Source: Candidatus Minimicrobia sp. QA0096
GTDB lineage: Bacteria > Patescibacteriota > Saccharimonadia > Saccharimonadales > Saccharimonadaceae
Assembly: GCF_963967315.1 (NCBI RefSeq)
Contig: NZ_OZ017288.1
Location: 540,001 to 572,000, forward strand
Direction of reading: 5' to 3'
DNA length: 32,000 bases
Shown: positions 4,420-13,053 of the stretch, in pieces
Layout of the letters: the number at the start of each line of letters is the position of its first letter
Numbering within the stretch: the stretch's first letter is position 1
Made by a program: the position numbers and the translations under genes
Notes under the pieces: generated by a model
Told to the model about the DNA's origin: nothing
The model's input: only the letters and a program-made list of their open reading frames with translations
Database searches by the model: none

Positions 4420-5631
4420 TTAATATCGTAGAGATTCGATTGGGTCGCGTCTGGTGGCGCGGGCTGCTGGATATACGCCAGAAATTACGCCGATGATTAT
4501 TGATAGTCCAATTGATAAGACGGCTGTTTGCCAATAAATATAAGGTGTGAGAGGTAAATATAAGCTGGCAATATAAGCTCCCACCAAGCCTAATCCATAG
4601 CCCAATATTCCGCCGAGGAATCCGATGATCGCTGCCTCGATTAAGAATTGATTGATGATATCCCAGCCTGTGGCGCCGACGGCTCGTCTGACGCCGACTT
4701 CACGCTGGCGCTCGGCGACATTGACAAGCATCACGTTCATAACGCCTATTCCACCGATTAACAGAGAAATAATACCGATGACAGTTAAGATTATCGAGAG
4801 AAACCTCGCGACATTAGACTTCTTTTCGTTTATCTCTTCACCGGAAACGATTCGATAATTCTTATCACTATCATGATTCTTCTTCAAAATATCGTCAGCC
4901 GATTTTATGACTGAATTGAGATTTTTATAATCTTTGGTAGTTACGATGATTTGCTGAATCTGCGGCGTTCCTTGGGTGAATTTTTTAATCACAGACAATG
5001 GAATAATGGCGGCGTTATTAAAATTCACGTCCAAATAACTGGCTTGATTTTCAATATTCTTCAACACGCCAACAACGGTCAATGGTTGATTTCGGATGTA
5101 AATAACGTTTCCGATGGATCTTTCGGTGCCGAACAAATCGACCGACAATTGCTGACCGACGACAACTCCGCCGATGTCGTTAATAAATTGCCCAGTAGCA
5201 ATTTGCAAATTAGCGACGTCTTTTAGCGATTCCGTACTGCCGATTAACGCGGCGTTTTGGATATCGACTTTACCTTCGCGGGCGCGCAGTTCGGCGTGCA
5301 GAAATGCAATTGGCGCAGCTTTTGTATTGGCAATTTTTTCTATATCCCTGGCGTCCGTTTCAGTCAATGTGTTGACTGTCGTCGTGTTGTCGGATTCGGT
5401 CAGTAGATTCGGGATGGCTTTTTGATTGCCAGACTTAACAATAGCGACAGGAGCAGATGATTGGTTGGAATTGTCGCCTAATAGGTGATTAAATCCGCCA
5501 GTTAGAGATAGAACCATGGTGATGCTGGCGATGCCAATAGCTACGCCTACAATTGTCAAAAATGTTCGTCCACGATTAGCTCGTAGCGCCTGAGTAGCGT
5601 TTTCAAAATGATTTTTTACTAATATTTTCAC
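4420..5631 (-). CDS. ABC transporter permease, MacB/FtsX family
   Basis: N-terminal TM segment, a large periplasmic domain and a C-terminal FtsX-like three-TM bundle (VMLVNVAERQREVGVRRAVGA). The GTG start overlaps the upstream ATPase stop (GTGA). Confidence 0.9.
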   Translation of the reverse strand: MKILVKNHFENATQALRANRGRTFLTIVGVAIGIASITMVLSLTGGFNHLLGDNSNQSSAPVAIVKSGNQKAIPNLLTESDNTTTVNTLTETDARDIEKIANTKAAPIAFLHAELRAREGKVDIQNAALIGSTESLKDVANLQIATGQFINDIGGVVVGQQLSVDLFGTERSIGNVIYIRNQPLTVVGVLKNIENQASYLDVNFNNAAIIPLSVIKKFTQGTPQIQQIIVTTKDYKNLNSVIKSADDILKKNHDSDKNYRIVSGEEINEKKSNVARFLSIILTVIGIISLLIGGIGVMNVMLVNVAERQREVGVRRAVGATGWDIINQFLIEAAIIGFLGGILGYGLGLVGAYIASLYLPLTPYIYWQTAVLSIGLSIIIGVISGVYPAARATRRDPIESLRY

Positions 5632-6422
5632 GATTTTTTCGCCCTCGATTTCTTTGAAGACTTTTGCTTCTTAGGTTTTTCTTCTTTTTCGTCGTCTACA
5701 ATTAACTTCTTAGTGAACTTGCGCTTTTCCTTATGCTCGTCAGTGTCGATTTTTCCGTCCAGCATGGTGATGACGCGACTGGCATAATGAGTCAATTCTG
5801 GGTTGTGAGTAACCATAATTATAGTATTGCCGCGACGATGTAGGTCGGACAATTCTTCCATAATGAGATGACTCGATTTGCTATCCAAATTTCCTGTTGG
5901 TTCATCGGCTAAGATAATTGACGGGCTATTAACCAGCGCTCTAGCAATTGCTACGCGCTGAACCTGACCGCCGGATAATTGATGTGGCATGTAATATTCG
6001 CGTTGTCCCAGATGAAAAGTTTTCAGAATGCGGCTAGCTTCTTGAAGTCGTTTAACTTTCCCGAGTCCTTTATACGTTAGCGGCAATGCTACGTTTTCAA
6101 TTACAGTCAGGCGAGGGATAAGATTGAAATTCTGGAAAACGAAGCCGATGTGTTTGGAGCGAATTTTGGCGCGTCGTCGCGAACTGAGATTGTCGACAGC
6201 GACATCATCCAGATAATATTCGCCCTCTGACGGCTGGTCTAATAGTCCAAGGGTGTTTAATAGAGTAGTTTTTCCGCAGCCGCTTGGGCCCATAATAGCG
6301 ATAAATTCACCCTTTTTAACGGTTAAATCGACGTTATCTAAGGCGCGAATCTCAGCATCACCAAAGCCAAATTTTTTAGTGACATTAACAAGTCTAATGC
6401 GTGGTGGAATAGTTTCTTTCAT
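5628..6422 (-). CDS. ABC transporter ATP-binding protein (MacB-type) with a Lys-rich C-terminal tail
   Basis: Walker A GPSGCGKTT, signature LSGGQVQR, Walker B ILADEPTGNLD. Start is at MKETIPP (ATG 6422). The longer tracked ORF reaching 6629 runs antisense through the tRNA gene and is an artefact. Confidence 0.93.
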   Translation of the reverse strand: MKETIPPRIRLVNVTKKFGFGDAEIRALDNVDLTVKKGEFIAIMGPSGCGKTTLLNTLGLLDQPSEGEYYLDDVAVDNLSSRRRAKIRSKHIGFVFQNFNLIPRLTVIENVALPLTYKGLGKVKRLQEASRILKTFHLGQREYYMPHQLSGGQVQRVAIARALVNSPSIILADEPTGNLDSKSSHLIMEELSDLHRRGNTIIMVTHNPELTHYASRVITMLDGKIDTDEHKEKRKFTKKLIVDDEKEEKPKKQKSSKKSRAKKS

Positions 6423-6482
6423 CTTTGACTTATTATAGAGAATGAATGTTATTAAGTGCAACCATAAGAGATAATAAAATTG

Positions 6483-6491
6483 TGGTATAAT
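6483..6491 (+). promoter_or_regulatory. extended -10 element for tRNA-Ser
   Basis: TGGTATAAT ends 9 nt before the mature tRNA 5' end. Confidence 0.5.
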
Positions 6492-6500
6492 TATCAACAA

Positions 6501-6590
6501 GGAAGGGTGCAGGAGTGGTTGAACTGGCACGCCTGGAACGCGTGTAACGGAGCAATCTGTTCGAGGGTTCGAATCCCTCTCCTTCCGCCA
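6501..6590 (+). tRNA. tRNA-Ser (anticodon GGA), CCA encoded
   Basis: Hand-folded cloverleaf. Acceptor stem GGAAGGG/TCCTTCC has one G-U pair. D stem is CAG/CTG. Anticodon stem CACGC/GCGTG carries loop CTGGAAC. There is a long variable arm. T arm is GAGGG-TTCGAAT-CCCTC. Discriminator is G, followed by CCA. Confidence 0.92.
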
Positions 6591-6650
6591 AGAGATATTT
6601 GAGAGGGTATTATAGAAACAAGAAAACATTATACGTACTTAATCAATATT

Positions 6651-7652
6651 TTGATAGACGCATATAATGCTGGTAAGCTACCAGAGATAAAAGATATTAT
6701 TGTCGAACCTGAATATGGGTATGTGGCGTCAATTGAGTATAATTCTGGAGAACACAGAGTTTTATATGGACATGATCCTGGGTTTAATTCAGGAAGTGCA
6801 GAGCAATTAGCTAATGATAAGGGGTATACAAAGTTTTTGCTTAGAGAAAATGGCATAGATTGTGCAAGAGGTTCTGAATTTCTTTTACCTTGGTGGGCGG
6901 ATATGTTGCGTCAATCAGACCGTCAGCAGTTTAATCACTCTATGCGTGACACAAAAGAAGCCCTTGGCTATATTGATAAATCTTTAGGATTTCCTGTCTA
7001 TGTTAAACCTAGCAGAGGTTCTCAAGGAGTTGGTGTAGCTAGAGTTGAAACCGCTGAAGAACTTGATAAGCTTCTTAATCAGTATAACGAGGAGCGTGTT
7101 AAAGTAGCTGTCATTGAAGAAGAATTAAAAATGCCTGACTATCGTATATTGGTTTTTGATGATGAGGTAGTTAGTGCCTATGAGAGACGACCTTTTTCTG
7201 TTAAGGGTGATGGAGTAAGTAATTTAGAACAGCTAATTGATTTGAAACATAAGACCTTGGTAGATTCTGGTAGAGATATACATTTTGAAAGACAGCTACC
7301 TATAATTATGAATAAATTAGAGAAAATGGGTCTGTCTATGACCGATATTATACCGGAAGGCACAGATGTTCGGTTGATGGATATATCAAATTTATCAGCA
7401 GGAGGAATGCCAGTTGATGTCGGTGAAGTTATGCATCAGCGGTGGCGAGATCTAGCTGTCAGGGTGGCAAGAATCTTTGATTTACGAATATGTGGGGTTG
7501 ATTTGGCGTGTAAGGATATTACGCAATCAGATAGCGAATACGGCGTAATAGAGGTAAACGCAACGCCTGGTGTCAAACAATTTATGGCAAGCGGTGTGGC
7601 TCAGCAGGAAAAGCTAGAAGATATTTTTGTTAAATTCTTCCGAACATTATAA
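6651..7652 (+). CDS. ATP-grasp ligase resembling the cyanophycin synthetase N-terminal domain and RimK
   Basis: DKGYTKFLLRENGI, GFPVYVKPSRGSQGVGV, DYRILVFDDEVVSAYERRP, NLSAGGMPVDV and GVIEVNATPG match ATP-grasp motifs. The start is uncertain: TTG at 6651 is the first canonical start after the in-frame stop at 6600, and there is no SD. Low GC: 23 of 60 nt in the line starting at 6721. Confidence 0.72.
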   Translation: MIDAYNAGKLPEIKDIIVEPEYGYVASIEYNSGEHRVLYGHDPGFNSGSAEQLANDKGYTKFLLRENGIDCARGSEFLLPWWADMLRQSDRQQFNHSMRDTKEALGYIDKSLGFPVYVKPSRGSQGVGVARVETAEELDKLLNQYNEERVKVAVIEEELKMPDYRILVFDDEVVSAYERRPFSVKGDGVSNLEQLIDLKHKTLVDSGRDIHFERQLPIIMNKLEKMGLSMTDIIPEGTDVRLMDISNLSAGGMPVDVGEVMHQRWRDLAVRVARIFDLRICGVDLACKDITQSDSEYGVIEVNATPGVKQFMASGVAQQEKLEDIFVKFFRTL

Positions 7653-7839: not shown

Positions 7840-7894
7840 TTGCAAAACACTAGATATAGCGGCTATAGTTATTATTGTACGCTATATATATAGC
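7840..7894 (+). promoter_or_regulatory. nrdA promoter with tandem NrdR boxes
   Basis: TTGCAA (7840-7845), an 18-nt spacer, then TATAGT (7864-7869). Box 1 is acactagatatagcgg (7847-7862). Box 2 is acgctatatatatagc (7879-7894). Starts are 32 bp apart. Each matches the 16-bp NrdR-box consensus (approx. acaCwAtATaTwGtgt, from memory) at 12-13 positions. Confidence 0.7.
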
Positions 7895-7934
7895 GAGCCC
7901 ATAAATAAACAAAAACACAAGCTACGAAGATAAG

Positions 7935-7965
7935 CCACCAGATGAGGTGCTGGTGGTTTGTTTTT
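7935..7965 (+). terminator. terminator-like hairpin inside the nrdA 5' leader (possible attenuator)
   Basis: Stem CCACCAG (7935-7941), loop atgaggtg, stem CTGGTGG (7950-7956), then TTTGTTTTT (7957-7965). It lies downstream of the putative promoter and 25 nt upstream of the nrdA GTG. Confidence 0.5.
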
Positions 7966-7989: not shown

Positions 7990-10392
7990 GTGAAAGAAAT
8001 TAACGTAGTCAAACGCGACGGAACAAAAGAGCCGTTTGATGCAAATAAAATTAACACGGCTATTTTAAAAGCATGCGAAGGTTTGCCGGACCAAATTTCT
8101 AAGGTCGTTCAAGTTGCGACTGAATTGCAATTGACATTATTTGATGGAATTACGACCGAACAACTAGACGAGGCTGTCATTCAAACAGTTTTACAAAACG
8201 TTAAAGACGACCCAGACTATGATAAAATCGCGGCACGATTATTATTGAAAACTGTCTATAAGCAGATTTTGGGCGATTATGAGACGGCGGAAGAATTGAA
8301 AAAGCTTCATGCGCGCGAATTTCCGAAGTTCGTTAAGTCGGCAGTAAAAGAAGGATTGTTGGATAATCGCATGGCTGACGGTCGATTTGATCTGAAAAAG
8401 CTGGCGGCGGAACTTGATCCAGCGCGTGATGATTTGAGTAAATATTTGGGTGTGGTGACCAATAAAAACCGCTACGCTCTTCGTAAGCAAAACGGCTCAC
8501 CAATTGAAACGCCTCAGTTTACGCACATGCGAATTGCTATGGGGCTTAGTTACAACGAGGCTGATCCGACCACTGCAGCGATTGAGTTTTATAATCACAT
8601 GAGTAATTTGGAATACGTTCCGGGTGGCTCAACGCGAGTTAATGCTGGCGGTTCGTTCCCACAGCTCAGTAACTGTTTCTTGCTTAATGTCGATGATGAT
8701 ATGGAGTCAATTGCTAAGGCTGTTCGCGACACAATGTGGATTGCTAAAGGCACGGGCGGAATTGGTATTGGTTTTACAAAGCTACGCGCAGCTGGCAGTC
8801 CAGTTAAAACCACCAACACTGAATCGACTGGACCAATTCCATTTATGAAGATGATTGATACGGCGCTGTTTGCGGTTTCTCGTAAGGGAAAAAAGGCTGG
8901 TGCAGCTGCAATTTACATGGAAAACTGGCACCTTAATTTTGATCAATTTATCGATCTTCGTCAAAACTCTGGCGACCCATATCTACGAACCAGATTTGCA
9001 AATACCGCGGTATTTATCTCTGACGAATTTATGAAGCGAGTAGAAAAAGATCAAGATTGGTATTTGTTTGATCCAGCGGAAACTCCAGATTTGACGGAAT
9101 TATACGGCGAAGAATTTTCGGCGCGATATAAAGAATATATCAAGATGGCAGAAGCTGGAAAATTGCGTGCGTTTGATAAAGTTCCAGCTCGTCAGCAATT
9201 TAAGCGCATTTTGACTAGTTTGCAGGCGACATCACATCCGTGGCTGACTTGGAAAGACACGATTAACGTGCGAGCATTAAATAACAATACGGGCACAATT
9301 CACCTCAGTAACTTGTGTACGGAAATTACATTACCGCAGGATAAAAATAATATTGCGACGTGTAATTTGGTGAGCATTAATTTGTCGGCATTTCTCGGTG
9401 AGGATAAAACTTGGGATTGGGATAGATTGAAAGAAGCGGCTCGTGCGGCAGTGCGACAATTGGACAATTTGTGCGACATCACTCAAACGCCAATTCCAGA
9501 AGCGATGCATTCGAATCAACAAACTCGAGCAATTGGCCTCGGGATTATGGGTCTTTCTGACGTATTGGAGAAGTTGGGCTATTGCTACGAATCAAAAGAA
9601 TCTTACGATTTGGTTGATCAATTGACAGAGTTCATTAGCTATCACGCGATTGACCAGTCGGCTGATTTGGCAAAGGAATTGGGTAGTTATCCAACATTCG
9701 CGGGTAGCGGCTGGAGCAAGGGCCTTCTTCCGATTGATACGGTTGATAAATTGTCGAAAGATCGCGGCGTGAAGGTGAAAATAGACCAAAAGACGCGACT
9801 GGACTGGGACAGTTTGCGAAAGAAGGTGAAGAAGGGAATGCGAAATGCGACTCTTATGGCAATTGCGCCGACGGCTAATATTGGGCATGTGGCGGGAACG
9901 ACTCCTGGAATTGATCCGCAATTTGCACAGATTTTCAGTCGCTCGACTTTGAATGGTAAGTTTTTGGAAGTGAACCATAATTTAGTTCGCGATTTGAAGA
10001 AGCTTGGTCTGTGGGATGATTTGAAAGATGAGATTTTTGCAGCTCAAGGCGATATTCAAGATATTGACGGCATTCCGCAAAACATCAAGGATGTTTATAA
10101 GACAAGCTTCCAGCTCAGTCCGTACGCATTTATTGAAGTGGCAGCCAGGGCTCAGAAGTGGGTGGATCAGGCGATTTCTCGAAATATGTACCTGGAGACG
10201 CGAGATATTGATGAATATGTGAAGATTTATTCAGAAGCGTGGAAGCGTGGCTTGAAAACGACATATTATCTACACGTTAAGCCGCGTCATCAGTCGGAGC
10301 AAACGACGGTTTCAGTTGATAAAATTGCAGAACAAAAAGTCCGTACAAATAGTAAAGTGCGCGGATTTGGATTTGCGAAAATTAATAAATAA
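7990..10392 (+). CDS. nrdA: ribonucleoside-diphosphate reductase alpha subunit (class I) with an N-terminal ATP-cone
   Basis: ATP-cone VVKRDGTKEPFDANKI. Active-site motifs are LSNCFLL, NLCTEITLP, ATCNLVSINL and TTYYLH. The GTG start follows AAGGAGGG. The ATG at 7988 runs straight into a stop. Confidence 0.95.
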   Translation: MKEINVVKRDGTKEPFDANKINTAILKACEGLPDQISKVVQVATELQLTLFDGITTEQLDEAVIQTVLQNVKDDPDYDKIAARLLLKTVYKQILGDYETAEELKKLHAREFPKFVKSAVKEGLLDNRMADGRFDLKKLAAELDPARDDLSKYLGVVTNKNRYALRKQNGSPIETPQFTHMRIAMGLSYNEADPTTAAIEFYNHMSNLEYVPGGSTRVNAGGSFPQLSNCFLLNVDDDMESIAKAVRDTMWIAKGTGGIGIGFTKLRAAGSPVKTTNTESTGPIPFMKMIDTALFAVSRKGKKAGAAAIYMENWHLNFDQFIDLRQNSGDPYLRTRFANTAVFISDEFMKRVEKDQDWYLFDPAETPDLTELYGEEFSARYKEYIKMAEAGKLRAFDKVPARQQFKRILTSLQATSHPWLTWKDTINVRALNNNTGTIHLSNLCTEITLPQDKNNIATCNLVSINLSAFLGEDKTWDWDRLKEAARAAVRQLDNLCDITQTPIPEAMHSNQQTRAIGLGIMGLSDVLEKLGYCYESKESYDLVDQLTEFISYHAIDQSADLAKELGSYPTFAGSGWSKGLLPIDTVDKLSKDRGVKVKIDQKTRLDWDSLRKKVKKGMRNATLMAIAPTANIGHVAGTTPGIDPQFAQIFSRSTLNGKFLEVNHNLVRDLKKLGLWDDLKDEIFAAQGDIQDIDGIPQNIKDVYKTSFQLSPYAFIEVAARAQKWVDQAISRNMYLETRDIDEYVKIYSEAWKRGLKTTYYLHVKPRHQSEQTTVSVDKIAEQKVRTNSKVRGFGFAKINK

Positions 10393-10406: not shown

Positions 10407-11384
10407 ATGGGAATTTTAGGTTCAGGATTACGCGATGGATTGTCACTTCACCCAATTCGTTACCCTTGGGCGTATGATCTTTATAATCAAGCAGTGGCTA
10501 ACACGTGGTTTCCAAACGAAGTTCAATTAGTCCAAGATTTGGCAGATTTTGAAAAATTGTCAGATGATGAAAAACACGCCTTAAAAACAGTGATTAGCTA
10601 TTTGAACCCAAACGAGTTATTGATCAATAAATCATTGGCGTTTGGTATTTATCCATACGTGAACGCGGCGGAAGCTCAACTATATTTGTCGAAACAGATG
10701 TGGGAAGAAGCTAACCACTTTATGACGTTTGAATACATTATTGAGACATTTCCGTTTGATCGCGAGGAAATTTATGCTGCGGGATTTGGTAAAAAATCAT
10801 TAGCCGACAAAGCTGACTTCCAGAATAAGCATTTGGATGTGATGCTTGATCCGAATTTGGATATTTATTCGCTGGAAGGTAAGAAAGATTTTGTTCGTTC
10901 ATTGGTAGCATATAACATCGTGCTTGAGGGAATTTGGTTCTATTCAGGCTTTATGGTTGGTATGAGTTTCCGCCAGCGTAATTTGTTGCGCAACGTTGGC
11001 TCGCTACTGGACTGGATTACTCGCGATGAAAATCTTCACTTGACGTTTGGTATCAATTTGCTTTTGACAATTTTGGACGAGAACCCAGAATTGCAAACAC
11101 AGGAATTTGCAGAAGAAATTCGTGGCTTGATTCTGCAGGCAGTGGAGCTTGAGAAGGCTTACAATAAGGATATGCTACCAAAGGGAATTTTGGGATTGAA
11201 TGCTGATTATGTCAATCAGTATGTTATGCATATGACCGACCGTCGCTTGCAAGAATTAGGTTTTGAGCCTGAATATAACGTGCCAAATCCAGCTAAATGG
11301 ATGGCAGCTGCCAATGATACGCTGGAATTGGTGAATTTCTTTGAAAGCACAAACACTAGTTACGAAGTTAATACCACGAAGTAA
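10407..11384 (+). CDS. nrdB: ribonucleotide reductase beta subunit, class Ic-like
   Basis: Ferritin-like R2 ligand pattern: E70 (NPNELL), E101-x2-H104 (EEANH), E in VLEGIWFYSGF, and E-x2-H in RDENLH. F108 sits at the position four residues after H104 that normally holds the radical Tyr. AGGAGG SD. Confidence 0.95.
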   Translation: MGILGSGLRDGLSLHPIRYPWAYDLYNQAVANTWFPNEVQLVQDLADFEKLSDDEKHALKTVISYLNPNELLINKSLAFGIYPYVNAAEAQLYLSKQMWEEANHFMTFEYIIETFPFDREEIYAAGFGKKSLADKADFQNKHLDVMLDPNLDIYSLEGKKDFVRSLVAYNIVLEGIWFYSGFMVGMSFRQRNLLRNVGSLLDWITRDENLHLTFGINLLLTILDENPELQTQEFAEEIRGLILQAVELEKAYNKDMLPKGILGLNADYVNQYVMHMTDRRLQELGFEPEYNVPNPAKWMAAANDTLELVNFFESTNTSYEVNTTK

Positions 11385-11794
11385 TGGGAGTTGATGATAT
11401 GAACGAATTAGCGAAAGAAATATTAGATACAGTCGAAGTTGGTGCGTTGGCTACTGTTAATTCTGATAGGACGCCACTGGTGACACCAATACATTTTGCA
11501 CGATTGGGTGATTCGATAGTTTGGATATCAGAGCCGACTGCGCGCCATTCGGAGAATGCGTTTCGAAACGGTAAGGCAGAATTTGTGGTTTGGGATGATA
11601 AAAAGCGAGCAGTTTTCTTAAAAACTAACGTGACTGAACTTCCAGAATCTGAAAAAGAGGCGGCAATGGCAGCTTATAAAGAGAAGTTGGCTGATTTTAT
11701 GCCACGTTGTCAAAATCCGCAAATATACGTTGCACCGATTGGTGAACTTGATGAAAAAACTACAACGGGCAATTGGCTGCATTTTATTGCATAA
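11384..11794 (+). CDS. pyridoxamine 5'-phosphate oxidase-like FMN-binding split-barrel protein
   Basis: VGALATVNSDRTPLVTPIHFARLGDSIVWISEPTARHSENAFRNGKAEFVVWD resembles the PNPOx / general stress protein 26 family. ATG at 11384 overlaps the nrdB stop (TAATG). An alternative ATG is at 11399. Confidence 0.72.
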   Translation: MGVDDMNELAKEILDTVEVGALATVNSDRTPLVTPIHFARLGDSIVWISEPTARHSENAFRNGKAEFVVWDDKKRAVFLKTNVTELPESEKEAAMAAYKEKLADFMPRCQNPQIYVAPIGELDEKTTTGNWLHFIA

Positions 11795-11842
11795 GCACTA
11801 TATCTAGCGTAAAATTAGTTAAGTAACTACTAAATATAGGGG
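11795..11842 (+). promoter_or_regulatory. second pair of NrdR-box-like sites
   Basis: gcactatatctagcgt (11795-11810) matches the consensus at 12 of 16 positions and the reverse complement of box 1 at 13 of 16. ctactaaatatagggg (11827-11842) matches at 11 of 16 with the core CTAaATATAG. Start-to-start spacing is 32 bp, identical to the nrdA pair. Confidence 0.55.
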
Positions 11843-11845
11843 AAA

Positions 11846-12025
11846 ATGAAAATGAACGCAAATCAGATTATTACTGATGACATGACTTTGGAAGAAAAAT
11901 TGAGCGCCATTGACGCAGCTCTTAAAGCGGCGCAGGAAGCGGCTGATGATCAAGCAAAGTCGAACGGCACTGTTGCGGCACCAGTTGACCCAGCAAGTTT
12001 GACTATTTGTGACGGTTGCGAATAG
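11846..12025 (+). CDS. unannotated 59-aa protein with a C-terminal CxxC (…TICDGCE)
   Basis: My translation is MKMNANQIITDDMTLEEKLSAIDAALKAAQEAADDQAKSNGTVAAPVDPASLTICDGCE. It falls one codon below the ORF-track cutoff. It follows the nrdA-nrdB-flavoprotein genes on the same strand and lies directly behind the NrdR-like boxes. Confidence 0.5.
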   Translation: MKMNANQIITDDMTLEEKLSAIDAALKAAQEAADDQAKSNGTVAAPVDPASLTICDGCE

Positions 12026-12047: not shown

Positions 12048-12077
12048 TTGACAGCATAGCCAATTATGTTGTATAAT
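12048..12077 (+). promoter_or_regulatory. near-consensus sigma-70 promoter
   Basis: TTGACA (12048-12053), an 18-nt spacer, then TATAAT (12072-12077). The ATG at 12088 lies only 10 nt further on. Confidence 0.6.
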
Positions 12078-12087
12078 TAAGAGTATC

Positions 12088-12474
12088 ATGAAAACAATTG
12101 AGACTCTTTCAGGATCTGAGGCTATGAAAGAAATTGAGCCACAGAGAGAGGGTTTTTCTCTGGCGGTTGCGCTTGGTTCTCTCAAGAAATGGGTGTGTGG
12201 TAGACGAGAAAAGTACGGCAAACCTTTTGGATTAACTAACAATTCAGCGGTAGAAAAACTTGAGGCAGCTGGAGAAGAATTGGGATTGCCAGAAACAGAC
12301 GTTCGTCTTTCCTCTGGACTTAAGCTGTTGATGGGCTTAATGCATGGCAAAAAGGAAGTTGAAATAATTGGCGAAGATATCTTAATTGAAGCCGCTAAAA
12401 GGGTTAAAGAAGAAGGTAAGGGAAGTGTTATAGCCGCCAACACATTTCAATGGAGAAGATGTTCCTACGGCTAG
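12088..12474 (+). CDS. hypothetical protein
   Basis: 128-codon ORF directly behind a consensus promoter. I recognised no domain. See the finding on frame-linked ORFs. Confidence 0.5.
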   Translation: MKTIETLSGSEAMKEIEPQREGFSLAVALGSLKKWVCGRREKYGKPFGLTNNSAVEKLEAAGEELGLPETDVRLSSGLKLLMGLMHGKKEVEIIGEDILIEAAKRVKEEGKGSVIAANTFQWRRCSYG

Positions 12475-12615: not shown

Positions 12616-13053
12616 GTGTCATATGAATGGGTAGATAAAAAGAGTAAAAAACCAGTTCACTTTTCAACAGACCATTACGAAGAAGCGGTTAAATTTGTTG
12701 AGGATGGTGGATCTTTGGTTTTGGCTGGATATTCAGCGGATGACTCAGTAGGCTCAAAGCCTCGCAGTGAAATGGGCTCTGCAGCGATTCATACGGCATT
12801 GAAATCTGGCGCAGACTTGATATTTGTTTACGTATCGTCAGAGGACAAGAAACTTACTATTAGGGTCATGGAAGATGAGGGTGGTATGCTTGCGGCGTTT
12901 AGCAATTCATATAGAAAGGCGCTAGATATGAAGGATTCTGCTGCATCCGAGTGTTTATTATCGTCATGCAAAGAGTACTTAAAAGACAGCGAAATAGGTA
13001 GGGTTATAGCAGAAGAATATAAGCGTCGATCAGATAAAAATAAAGCTAAGTAA
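12616..13053 (+). CDS. hypothetical protein
   Basis: 145-codon ORF with a GTG start and no clear SD. I recognised no domain. It may be the downstream part of a frameshifted gene. Confidence 0.45.
   Translation: MSYEWVDKKSKKPVHFSTDHYEEAVKFVEDGGSLVLAGYSADDSVGSKPRSEMGSAAIHTALKSGADLIFVYVSSEDKKLTIRVMEDEGGMLAAFSNSYRKALDMKDSAASECLLSSCKEYLKDSEIGRVIAEEYKRRSDKNKAK

Follow-up and report, generated by a model that had tools for sequence, protein, structure and literature searches.

In class I ribonucleotide reductase (RNR), the CxxC motif that the alpha subunit, NrdA, carries in its C-terminal tail is re-reduced by thioredoxin, glutaredoxin or NrdH; in Escherichia coli the tail cysteines are C754 and C759. 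The tail of yeast R1 reportedly works between protomers, a result said to come from Zhang et al. 2007, and a split class II RNR, NrdJa/NrdJb of Pseudomonas aeruginosa, was reportedly described by Torrents in 2005. During class I turnover, the active-site cysteine pair of NrdA becomes oxidised and the tail CxxC, formed by C695 and C698 in Bacillus subtilis, reaches into the active site on its flexible tail and reduces the disulfide (e.g. PMC11903788). According to a review, class I RNRs 'almost exclusively' have a C-terminal motif of two cysteines on the alpha chain, and small-molecule reductants have been suggested for cysteine-less class II tails (PMC9669993). NrdJb binds NrdJa near its C-terminus and 'mediates cysteine thiol-disulfide exchange', and electron transfer between subunits is documented for a class II enzyme (Crona 2015, PMC4520616; Loderer 2017, PMC5704485). 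The nrdA gene of Aeromonas phage Aeh1 is described as fragmented in association with a mobile genetic element, its pieces being assembled via element-derived interaction domains (Crona 2010, PMC3045599). Here we describe a window of 32,000 nucleotides, the whole stretch analysed, from Candidatus Minimicrobia sp. QA0096 (contig NZ_OZ017288.1, positions 540,001 to 572,000), in which a small gene close to nrdA and nrdB probably codes for a free protein of 57 residues that is the redox-shuttle tail from the C-terminus of a class I alpha subunit, separated from nrdA by gene fission. On comparative sequence evidence, we put the probability of this reading at roughly 0.8.

The peptide gene and its match to NrdA tails

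An earlier note, made from the DNA sequence alone, had claimed an open reading frame (ORF) of 59 codons at 11846-12025 on the + strand. The ORF exists and is translated as claimed there, to MKMNANQIITDDMTLEEKLSAIDAALKAAQEAADDQAKSNGTVAAPVDPASLTICDGCE (MKMNANQIIT...TICDGCE). The start codon fared less well. Most homologues begin at the second ATG (MNA...), and a GGGG Shine-Dalgarno sequence at 11839-11842 is correctly spaced for a start at 11852 and wrongly spaced for one at 11846. This makes a length of 57 residues the most likely, with the coding sequence at 11852..12025 (+) and the upstream ATG at 11846 as the alternative that would give 59. No meaningful match to the peptide was found in Pfam, NCBIfam, PHROGs or the PDB sequences. 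A search of 5.8 billion proteins retrieved 353 homologues; those among the 120 matches listed are 56-76 residues long, and every named one is a 'hypothetical protein'.

Across the family, the N-terminal block (I-I-x-D-D-M-T-L-E-E-K-L-S-A-I-D-A-A) and the end (A-P-x-D-P-A-x-L-T-x-C-x-G-C-[E/Q]) are invariant, and the linker that joins them varies. Columns P44, D46, P47, C53, G55 and C56 are invariant in alignment A1, and P44, D46, P47, C53 and C56 in the wider alignment A2. The window peptide closes with C53-D-G-C56-E57 at its extreme C-terminus and contains two cysteines in 57 residues. The gene is under strong purifying selection: across 72 distinct 57-codon gene sequences, the ratio of non-synonymous to synonymous substitution (dN/dS) is 0.08 (proportions of synonymous and non-synonymous differences, pS 0.66 vs pN 0.12), with separate values of 0.06 (residues 1-28), 0.15 (linker) and 0.05 (tail). 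Conservation of the ORF, which the earlier note had proposed to check, extends across Saccharimonadales, with selection acting at the protein level. AlphaFold2, run on the family alignment, predicts an amphipathic acidic helix at residues 13-38 (11888..11965, +), after the invariant DDMTLEEKLSAIDAA block (residues 9-23), with a block-mean predicted local distance difference test score (pLDDT) of about 74-80. Confidence drops towards the C-terminus, the last block having a mean pLDDT of 47 and residues 54-57 lying below 50. This agrees with the helical N-terminus and flexible tail that had been read from the sequence.

The NrdA of the same locus (7990..10392, +) belongs to the alpha subunits of class I RNR, with an ATP-cone, an all-alpha domain and a barrel domain (Pfam, NCBIfam NF005101), and its closest structure is P. 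aeruginosa NrdA, 5im3. It ends ...KTTYYLHVKPRHQSEQTTVSVDKIAEQKVRTNSKVRGFGFAKINK (...RGFGFAKINK). As had been claimed, its C-terminal tail lacks cysteine: none follows the KTTYY motif, and the protein covers positions 3-788 of the 822-position NF005101 model. The active-site cysteine motifs SNCFLL, NLCTEI and TCNL, which hold the redox cysteine pair and the thiyl-radical cysteine, are intact, and re-reduction would thus still be needed in every turnover. For comparison, we took the best 150 NrdAs from an exhaustive phmmer search of 1.84 billion cluster representatives. KTTYY is retained in 120 of these, of which 112 have a CxxC end and eight have fewer than two tail cysteines. Among these eight tail-less representatives, P0141, P0153, P0173, P0221 and P0223 were left out of the locus check, and the contig of P0163 (L101) ends about 100 nt past nrdA. 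A G-F-G-F motif closes all tail-less Saccharibacteria NrdAs (10350-10392 in the window) and turns up again, in many cases twice, in the linkers of the fused proteins P0122, P0134 and P0256; it may be a docking site for the free peptide.

The end of the peptide is homologous to one particular form of NrdA tail, the one found in the nearest clade. The 15 residues that close the peptide, APVDPASLTICDGCE (APIDPAELTMCEGCQ in relatives; residues 43-57, 11978..12022, +), include the CxxC and the terminal E/Q and match the ends of the nearest tail-bearing NrdAs, ...CPIDPAERAQCDSCQ, ...CPTDPAERALCESCQ and ...CPIDPQERLQCESCQ. The fused tails are those of P0121 (58% identical to the window NrdA; ...KVCPIDPAERAQCDSCQ), P0122 (53%; ...QACPTDPAERALCESCQ), P0256 (60%; ...SACPIDPQERLQCESCQ) and P0209 (...GACPIDPFEKVMCTSCQ); the free ends are ...AAPVDPASLTICDGCE in the window peptide and ...AAPIDPAELTMCEGCQ in its orthologues. 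Peptide and nearest-clade fused tails have the motif P-x-D-P-x5-C-x-x-C in common, which in the peptide takes the form P-x-D-P-x5-C-x-G-C-E/Q at the very C-terminus. When the peptide profile was compared with the 150 NrdAs, these same four proteins were the top matches, with profile positions 42-57 (38-57 in P0209) aligned flush to the last residue of each protein. In the opposite direction, a hidden Markov model (HMM) for which the C-terminal 17 residues of these four fused proteins were the only input ranked the ORF at 11840-12025 first among the 881 stop-to-stop ORFs of the window. Against the 26,472 ORFs of all loci, it gave E=1.6e-5 for the orthologue in locus L005 (82% identical), and 63 of its 65 matches were peptide ORFs. 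An end of the form C..C[E/Q] occurs in one of the 881 window ORFs, that of the peptide. The resemblance to the E. coli tail ...DDGCESGACKI, to which the earlier note had pointed, turned out to be uninformative, the real match being to the tails of the nearest clade.

Gene order, co-occurrence and further splits

Co-occurrence was examined in 84 loci: the window, three loci from metagenomes and 80 that were retrieved with NrdA from a set in which each GTDB species is represented by a single genome. The window DNA was read as that of an oral Candidatus Nanosynbacter (TM7, Saccharibacteria). In the 80 scanned loci, NrdA identity is 79-99%, reaching 98-99% between the window and named Nanosynbacter genomes, and all but two are titled Saccharibacteria, the two being a metagenome-assembled genome (MAG) titled 'Acidobacteriota' and an 'uncultured bacterium'. 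The former (L092, JBLMYW010000055.1, 'Acidobacteriota bacterium MAG219') encodes a Saccharibacteria-type tail-less NrdA of 80% identity and is probably a mis-binned Saccharibacteria contig. All 82 complete NrdAs are free of cysteine after KTTYY, and the peptide gene was found in all 75 loci that are long enough; in the other nine, the contig stops less than 2 kb past nrdA, short of the expected position. The loci of the tail-bearing relatives (L095, L097 and L098) encode no separate peptide, and the sole tail-like ORF end in each is that of NrdA itself. The earlier note had proposed to look for synteny with nrdAB and for anticorrelation with a cysteine-containing NrdA tail, and both patterns were recovered: the peptide accompanies nrdAB in 75/75 informative loci and coincides with a cysteine-free NrdA tail (82/82), and is missing from the three tail-bearing relatives.

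Two gene orders were observed. The order nrdA-nrdB-PNPOx-peptide is present in 69 loci. In the window it follows the arrangement that the earlier note had given, except that its 'flavoprotein' is more exactly a PNPOx-type split-barrel protein (PF01243). Six environmental Saccharimonadales loci (L079, L083, L084, L090, L091 and L094) have the order nrdA-peptide-nrdB and no PNPOx gene; there the peptide start lies a few bases 3' of the nrdA stop and has its own Shine-Dalgarno sequence. This order is what fission of the 3' end of nrdA would leave, and the gene order suggests that in Nanosynbacter-type genomes the peptide gene moved behind nrdB and the PNPOx-like gene. The idea of a split-off mobile tail is thus supported by the comparative evidence, every prediction testable at the sequence level having held.

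A similar arrangement appears in other lineages. On two high-GC actinobacterial contigs (L096 and L099, about 67% GC), whose NrdA cluster has one member labelled Naasia sp., a tail-less NrdA ends ...RRGFGFGAAPKADA, and its TGA stop overlaps the ATGA/GTGA start of an ORF of 34-39 residues (1380-1499 in L096, 921-1031 in L099), after which comes nrdB. This tail ORF ends ...VPIDPMESLMCDSCQ, with the pattern ...TATGSIY[IV]VP[IL]DPMESLMCDSCQ. The five sequence variants stem from several data sources and the overlap is kept on two diverged contigs, making a sequencing error unlikely; a programmed frameshift at the overlap is formally possible, although both contigs retain it.

A T4-like phage contig (L100) encodes an intein-containing tail-less NrdA (...TSGALNKVSA). 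Located 33 nt 3' of this nrdA, a 42-residue ORF (6595-6723), MSQVDSSSSVDMNDDDDFLSGITPQDVPKACSIDNPDCEACQ, ends in ...KACSIDNPDCEACQ, the canonical tail of that NrdA clade. Free tails of this type were found in six variants of 42-50 residues; a tblastn search of INPHARED phages with the phage-type peptide gave no match. An acidic-hydrophobic block near the N-terminus is found in both the phage-type (DDFLS) and the Saccharibacteria-type (DDMTL) free tails and may be a convergent docking motif.

In a neighbour-joining tree of NrdA based on 272 shared columns, the Saccharibacteria clade is sister to an actinobacterial clade and the phage NrdA is placed elsewhere. The sister actinobacterial clade holds both a fused protein (P0272) and a split one (P0280), with 77% identity between them. 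The simplest reading of this simple tree is that the class I tail underwent fission at least three times.

Regulatory sites and neighbouring genes

NrdR sites consist of two 16-bp boxes separated by a 15-16-bp spacer (PMC13584703, PMC12051234), and the box consensus has six highly conserved positions, C4, A6, A8, T9, T11 and G13 (PMC13584703). The two NrdR-box-like sites that had been noticed in front of the peptide gene fit this description well. Box 1, GCACTATATCTAGCGT (11795..11810, +), and box 2, CTACTAAATATAGGGG (11827..11842, +), each match 6/6 key positions and lie 16 bp apart, a canonical spacer. They form the only 6/6 pair in the 32-kb window, and at least one consensus pair arose in 6 of 1000 dinucleotide-preserving shuffles of the window. 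Box 1 fills the spacer of a putative promoter, TTGCAT-17-TAAAAT (11787..11815, +; 8/12 matches, under the scan threshold), and box 2 overlaps the predicted transcript start and the GGGG Shine-Dalgarno sequence. The position of the box pair is kept upstream of the peptide gene in dozens of genomes with the order nrdA-nrdB-PNPOx-peptide, and the pair is absent where the gene sits inside the operon. The promoter layout is also kept in relatives, e.g. TAGACA-16-TATAAT in L086. A perfect sigma-70 promoter at 12048-12077 (TTGACA-18-TATAAT) serves the next gene, and the peptide gene therefore looks monocistronic. Because its own promoter is overlapped by a consensus NrdR pair, the peptide would be co-repressed with nrdAB via NrdR at high deoxyadenosine triphosphate (dATP).

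The promoter-like site of nrdA (TTGCAA-18-TATAGT, 7840..7869, +; 9/12 consensus matches) has the same layout, with NrdR box 1, ACACTAGATATAGCGG (7847..7862, +; 6/6 conserved positions), in its spacer. Box 2 of nrdA (7879..7896, +) lies within a TA repeat and matches 5/6 positions in either of two registers (7879-7894 or 7881-7896). The identical 32-bp spacing of the two box pairs, claimed before, accordingly stands in one register and not in the other (16- vs 18-bp spacer). Between this promoter and the start codon, the nrdA leader can form a strong hairpin with a U-run after it at 7925-7965 (AAGCCACCAGAUGAGGUGCUGGUGGUUUGUUUUU); the leader has a fold z-score of -3.2 and no Rfam match, and the hairpin may be a transcription attenuator.

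Between nrdA and the peptide gene, nrdB (10407..11384, +) encodes a class Ic-like beta subunit whose best PDB match is Chlamydia trachomatis R2, 1SYY. Aligned to this structure (EEANHFMTF vs EEAVHTHTF, F127; NPNE vs STAE, E89), the window NrdB has a Phe in the position of the radical Tyr and a Glu as first metal ligand, which would imply a Mn/Fe cofactor instead of a tyrosyl radical. In 69 loci, nrdB and the peptide gene are separated by the gene for a PNPOx-like split-barrel protein predicted to bind flavin mononucleotide (11384..11794, +; Pfam PF01243). Neither the six nrdA-peptide-nrdB loci nor the tail-bearing relatives have this gene. Its product had no match in a PDB sequence search and is weakly similar to F420/PPOX-class oxidoreductases; it may serve in cofactor activation or as a reductase for the peptide.

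The two ORFs located 3' of the peptide gene, at 12088-12474 (128 residues) and 12616-13053 (145 residues), have no Pfam or NCBIfam match, and the relative L005 has a NUDIX hydrolase and a CTP synthase in their place. ARAGORN detected a tRNA-Ser(GGA) at 6501-6590, within a mechanically called ORF of the opposite strand (5628-6629). An Rfam scan of the window at the gathering threshold reported no family, this tRNA included.

Mechanism, alternatives and related systems

In the mechanism that we propose, the CxxC of the free peptide would reduce the active-site disulfide of NrdA in trans. The invariant acidic helix would dock the peptide on NrdA or the holoenzyme, from where the disordered tail could reach the active site, and the oxidised CxxC would be recycled by the thioredoxin system, or possibly by the PNPOx-like flavoprotein. 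A broader proposal is that class I RNR has a third component that has been overlooked and has arisen repeatedly, the free NrdA tail (at least three fissions), regulated separately and possibly rate-limiting because the tail acts in trans, and that phages and other mobile elements, with no RNR gene close by, carry their own tails to boost or hijack re-reduction in the host during infection. This we offer tentatively, being more inclined to doubt it than to accept it.

Several observations weigh against a detached tail. With the fused-tail HMM, the window peptide itself scores weakly (E 0.16, 8 bits), significance being reached via orthologues only, and a general HMM made from 112 NrdA tails, most of them of the ...KACSIDNPDCEACQ type, misses the window peptide. 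Three cysteines are present in the fused tails of the clade; in Saccharibacteria and actinobacteria, the free peptides have Ala or Val in place of the first, so that the chemistry may differ. Neither an nrdR gene, sought with a regular expression, nor a thioredoxin gene was found in the window or the fetched loci. Free peptides also occur apart from RNR genes. Phage-like contigs (L001-L004, and L008-L014 from IMG/VR) encode a Saccharibacteria-type peptide with no nrdA or nrdB within 10 kb, and a free 48-residue Pseudomonas-type tail peptide, ...DDFLSDAQAQDVPKACSLDNPDCEACQ, is encoded in L102 (5001-5147; also in L103, 477-623) with no nrdA within 5 kb. Peptides so distant from a tail-less NrdA leave room for a modulatory role.

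The phage-like contigs are about 57-69 kb long and their peptide copy is 81-88% identical (10001-10174 in L001-L004). It heads a rightward operon directly 3' of a cluster of five tRNAs (Trp, Asn, Phe, Met and Gln), and no valid NrdR box pair was found upstream of it. The same contigs encode Rad52, YqaJ exonuclease, SSB, a T7 gp5.9-like protein, ParB and 7-deazaguanine/queuosine genes. A scan of IMG/VR for close relatives of the window NrdA, which requires exact 8-residue words, retrieved none. L102 is a 145-kb element with SSB and an MvaT-like protein, in which the peptide gene lies among small unknown genes; its product could be a tail mimic of the mobile element.

Mimicry might also be extended to the cellular peptide, which would then be a regulator or inhibitor that competes with substrate or thioredoxin at the NrdA active site, or titrates reductant, and in this way adjusts RNR activity instead of sustaining it; mobile elements would use it to manipulate host synthesis of deoxynucleotides. 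The RNR-less copies on mobile elements speak for this, as does the complete three-cysteine tail of the L102 peptide, hosts of the Pseudomonas type normally having a fused one; moreover, tail and substrate binding are mutually exclusive in B. subtilis RNR (PMC11903788). We nevertheless consider it unlikely, since the cognate cellular NrdA is itself tail-less and yet retains an active-site cysteine pair that needs re-reduction, and if the peptide did nothing but inhibit, no known route of turnover would be left to the enzyme. The one-to-one complementarity of 82 tail-less NrdAs and 75/75 peptides favours an essential part over a modulator. It is slightly less probable still that the peptide handles metal or assists cofactor assembly for the class Ic-like NrdB, its CxxC, perhaps in a dimer, binding Mn, Fe or Zn and building or repairing the Mn/Fe cofactor together with the PNPOx-like flavoprotein. 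CxxC is a common metal-binding motif, NrdB has Phe at the radical position, and the peptide gene lies 3' of the flavoprotein gene in most genomes. The tail, however, is homologous to NrdA tails and to no metallochaperone, with no match in Pfam, NCBIfam or PDB, and the peptide is kept in six genomes that have no PNPOx gene in the operon. The actinobacterial and phage splits again pair an NrdA tail with a truncated NrdA.

That the ORF is an unrelated small redox peptide, a precursor of a ribosomally synthesised and post-translationally modified peptide (RiPP) or a chance ORF beside nrd genes seems very improbable. Such a view would fit a short, unannotated 'hypothetical protein' with no family match, but it is at odds with a dN/dS of 0.08 over 72 distinct sequences, with the invariant nrdAB synteny and with the singular C..C[EQ] end among 881 ORFs, and no RiPP maturation enzymes are encoded nearby. 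A few further ideas were dropped. A Pup/UBact-like tag was suggested by the terminal G-C-E/Q, but NrdA tails end in this very motif and the neighbourhood has no ligase genes. Ligation by a split intein (a 'fractured gene') was rejected for a product of 57 residues with no intein motifs. Fusion by stop-codon readthrough or frameshift in Saccharibacteria was rejected for a gene that has its own Shine-Dalgarno sequence or promoter and usually lies two genes away.

If the peptide is a detached tail, its existence in nature would mean that covalent attachment is dispensable, and it would account for the turnover of class I NrdAs that appear to have no tail. It would also provide a handle on the poorly understood re-reduction half-cycle, as the concentration, sequence and redox state of the tail could be varied apart from the catalytic subunit. 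For annotation, a 'hypothetical protein' found throughout human oral Saccharibacteria would receive a function, the NrdR regulon would gain a predicted member, and tail-less NrdA entries in databases would be worth re-examining for small downstream ORFs that end in CxxC. The mobile copies point to a possible new route by which phages manipulate the nucleotide supply of the host.

In the literature searched (full text, not all journals covered), a detached tail was not described for any class I enzyme. The remark in the earlier note that no such arrangement had been described therefore holds for class I and not beyond it, NrdJa/NrdJb being a clear precedent in class II. In both systems, a cysteine module for disulfide exchange is encoded in a separate gene adjoining that of the catalytic subunit, and catalysis stays in the large chain; the small chain NrdJb is required for reduction by physiological reductants. 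NrdJb differs in belonging to a B12-dependent class II enzyme and in being a folded zinc-finger domain with six cysteines and an IscU-like part (PMC5704485). The Saccharibacteria peptide, by contrast, is predicted to partner a class I (Ic-like) NrdA/NrdB and to consist of one helix and a disordered tail with one CxxC. A promoter of its own, of the NrdR type, is present in one lineage, two genes 3' of nrdA, and there are copies on phage-like contigs.

With the fused class I NrdA tail, the peptide has in common the terminal cysteine pair (112/120 representatives end so), the flexible context, the terminal E/Q, the nearest-clade motif P-x-D-P-x5-C-x-x-C and presumably the role. The fused tail is covalently attached, whereas the peptide is the product of a separate gene with its own Shine-Dalgarno sequence and promoter, its first cysteine is replaced by Ala, and its conserved N-terminal helix is an addition that is not obvious in fused tails. 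NrdH, glutaredoxin and thioredoxin are likewise small CxxC redox proteins that are co-located or co-regulated with RNR and often phage-borne. They have a thioredoxin fold (~75-110 residues, internal CxxC) and reduce the NrdA tail, whereas the peptide would replace that tail; it shows no sign of the fold, having no Pfam or NCBIfam match, a one-helix model and its CxxC at the extreme C-terminus. The Aeh1 NrdA is comparable in that two separately encoded pieces assemble non-covalently into a class I alpha subunit. Its break reportedly lies in the catalytic core and is said to have been caused by a homing-endonuclease gene, whereas here the disordered tail alone is detached and no mobile element is involved. 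On sequence comparison, the split tail would thus be the class I counterpart of NrdJa/NrdJb, reduced to a microprotein and apparently new for class I.

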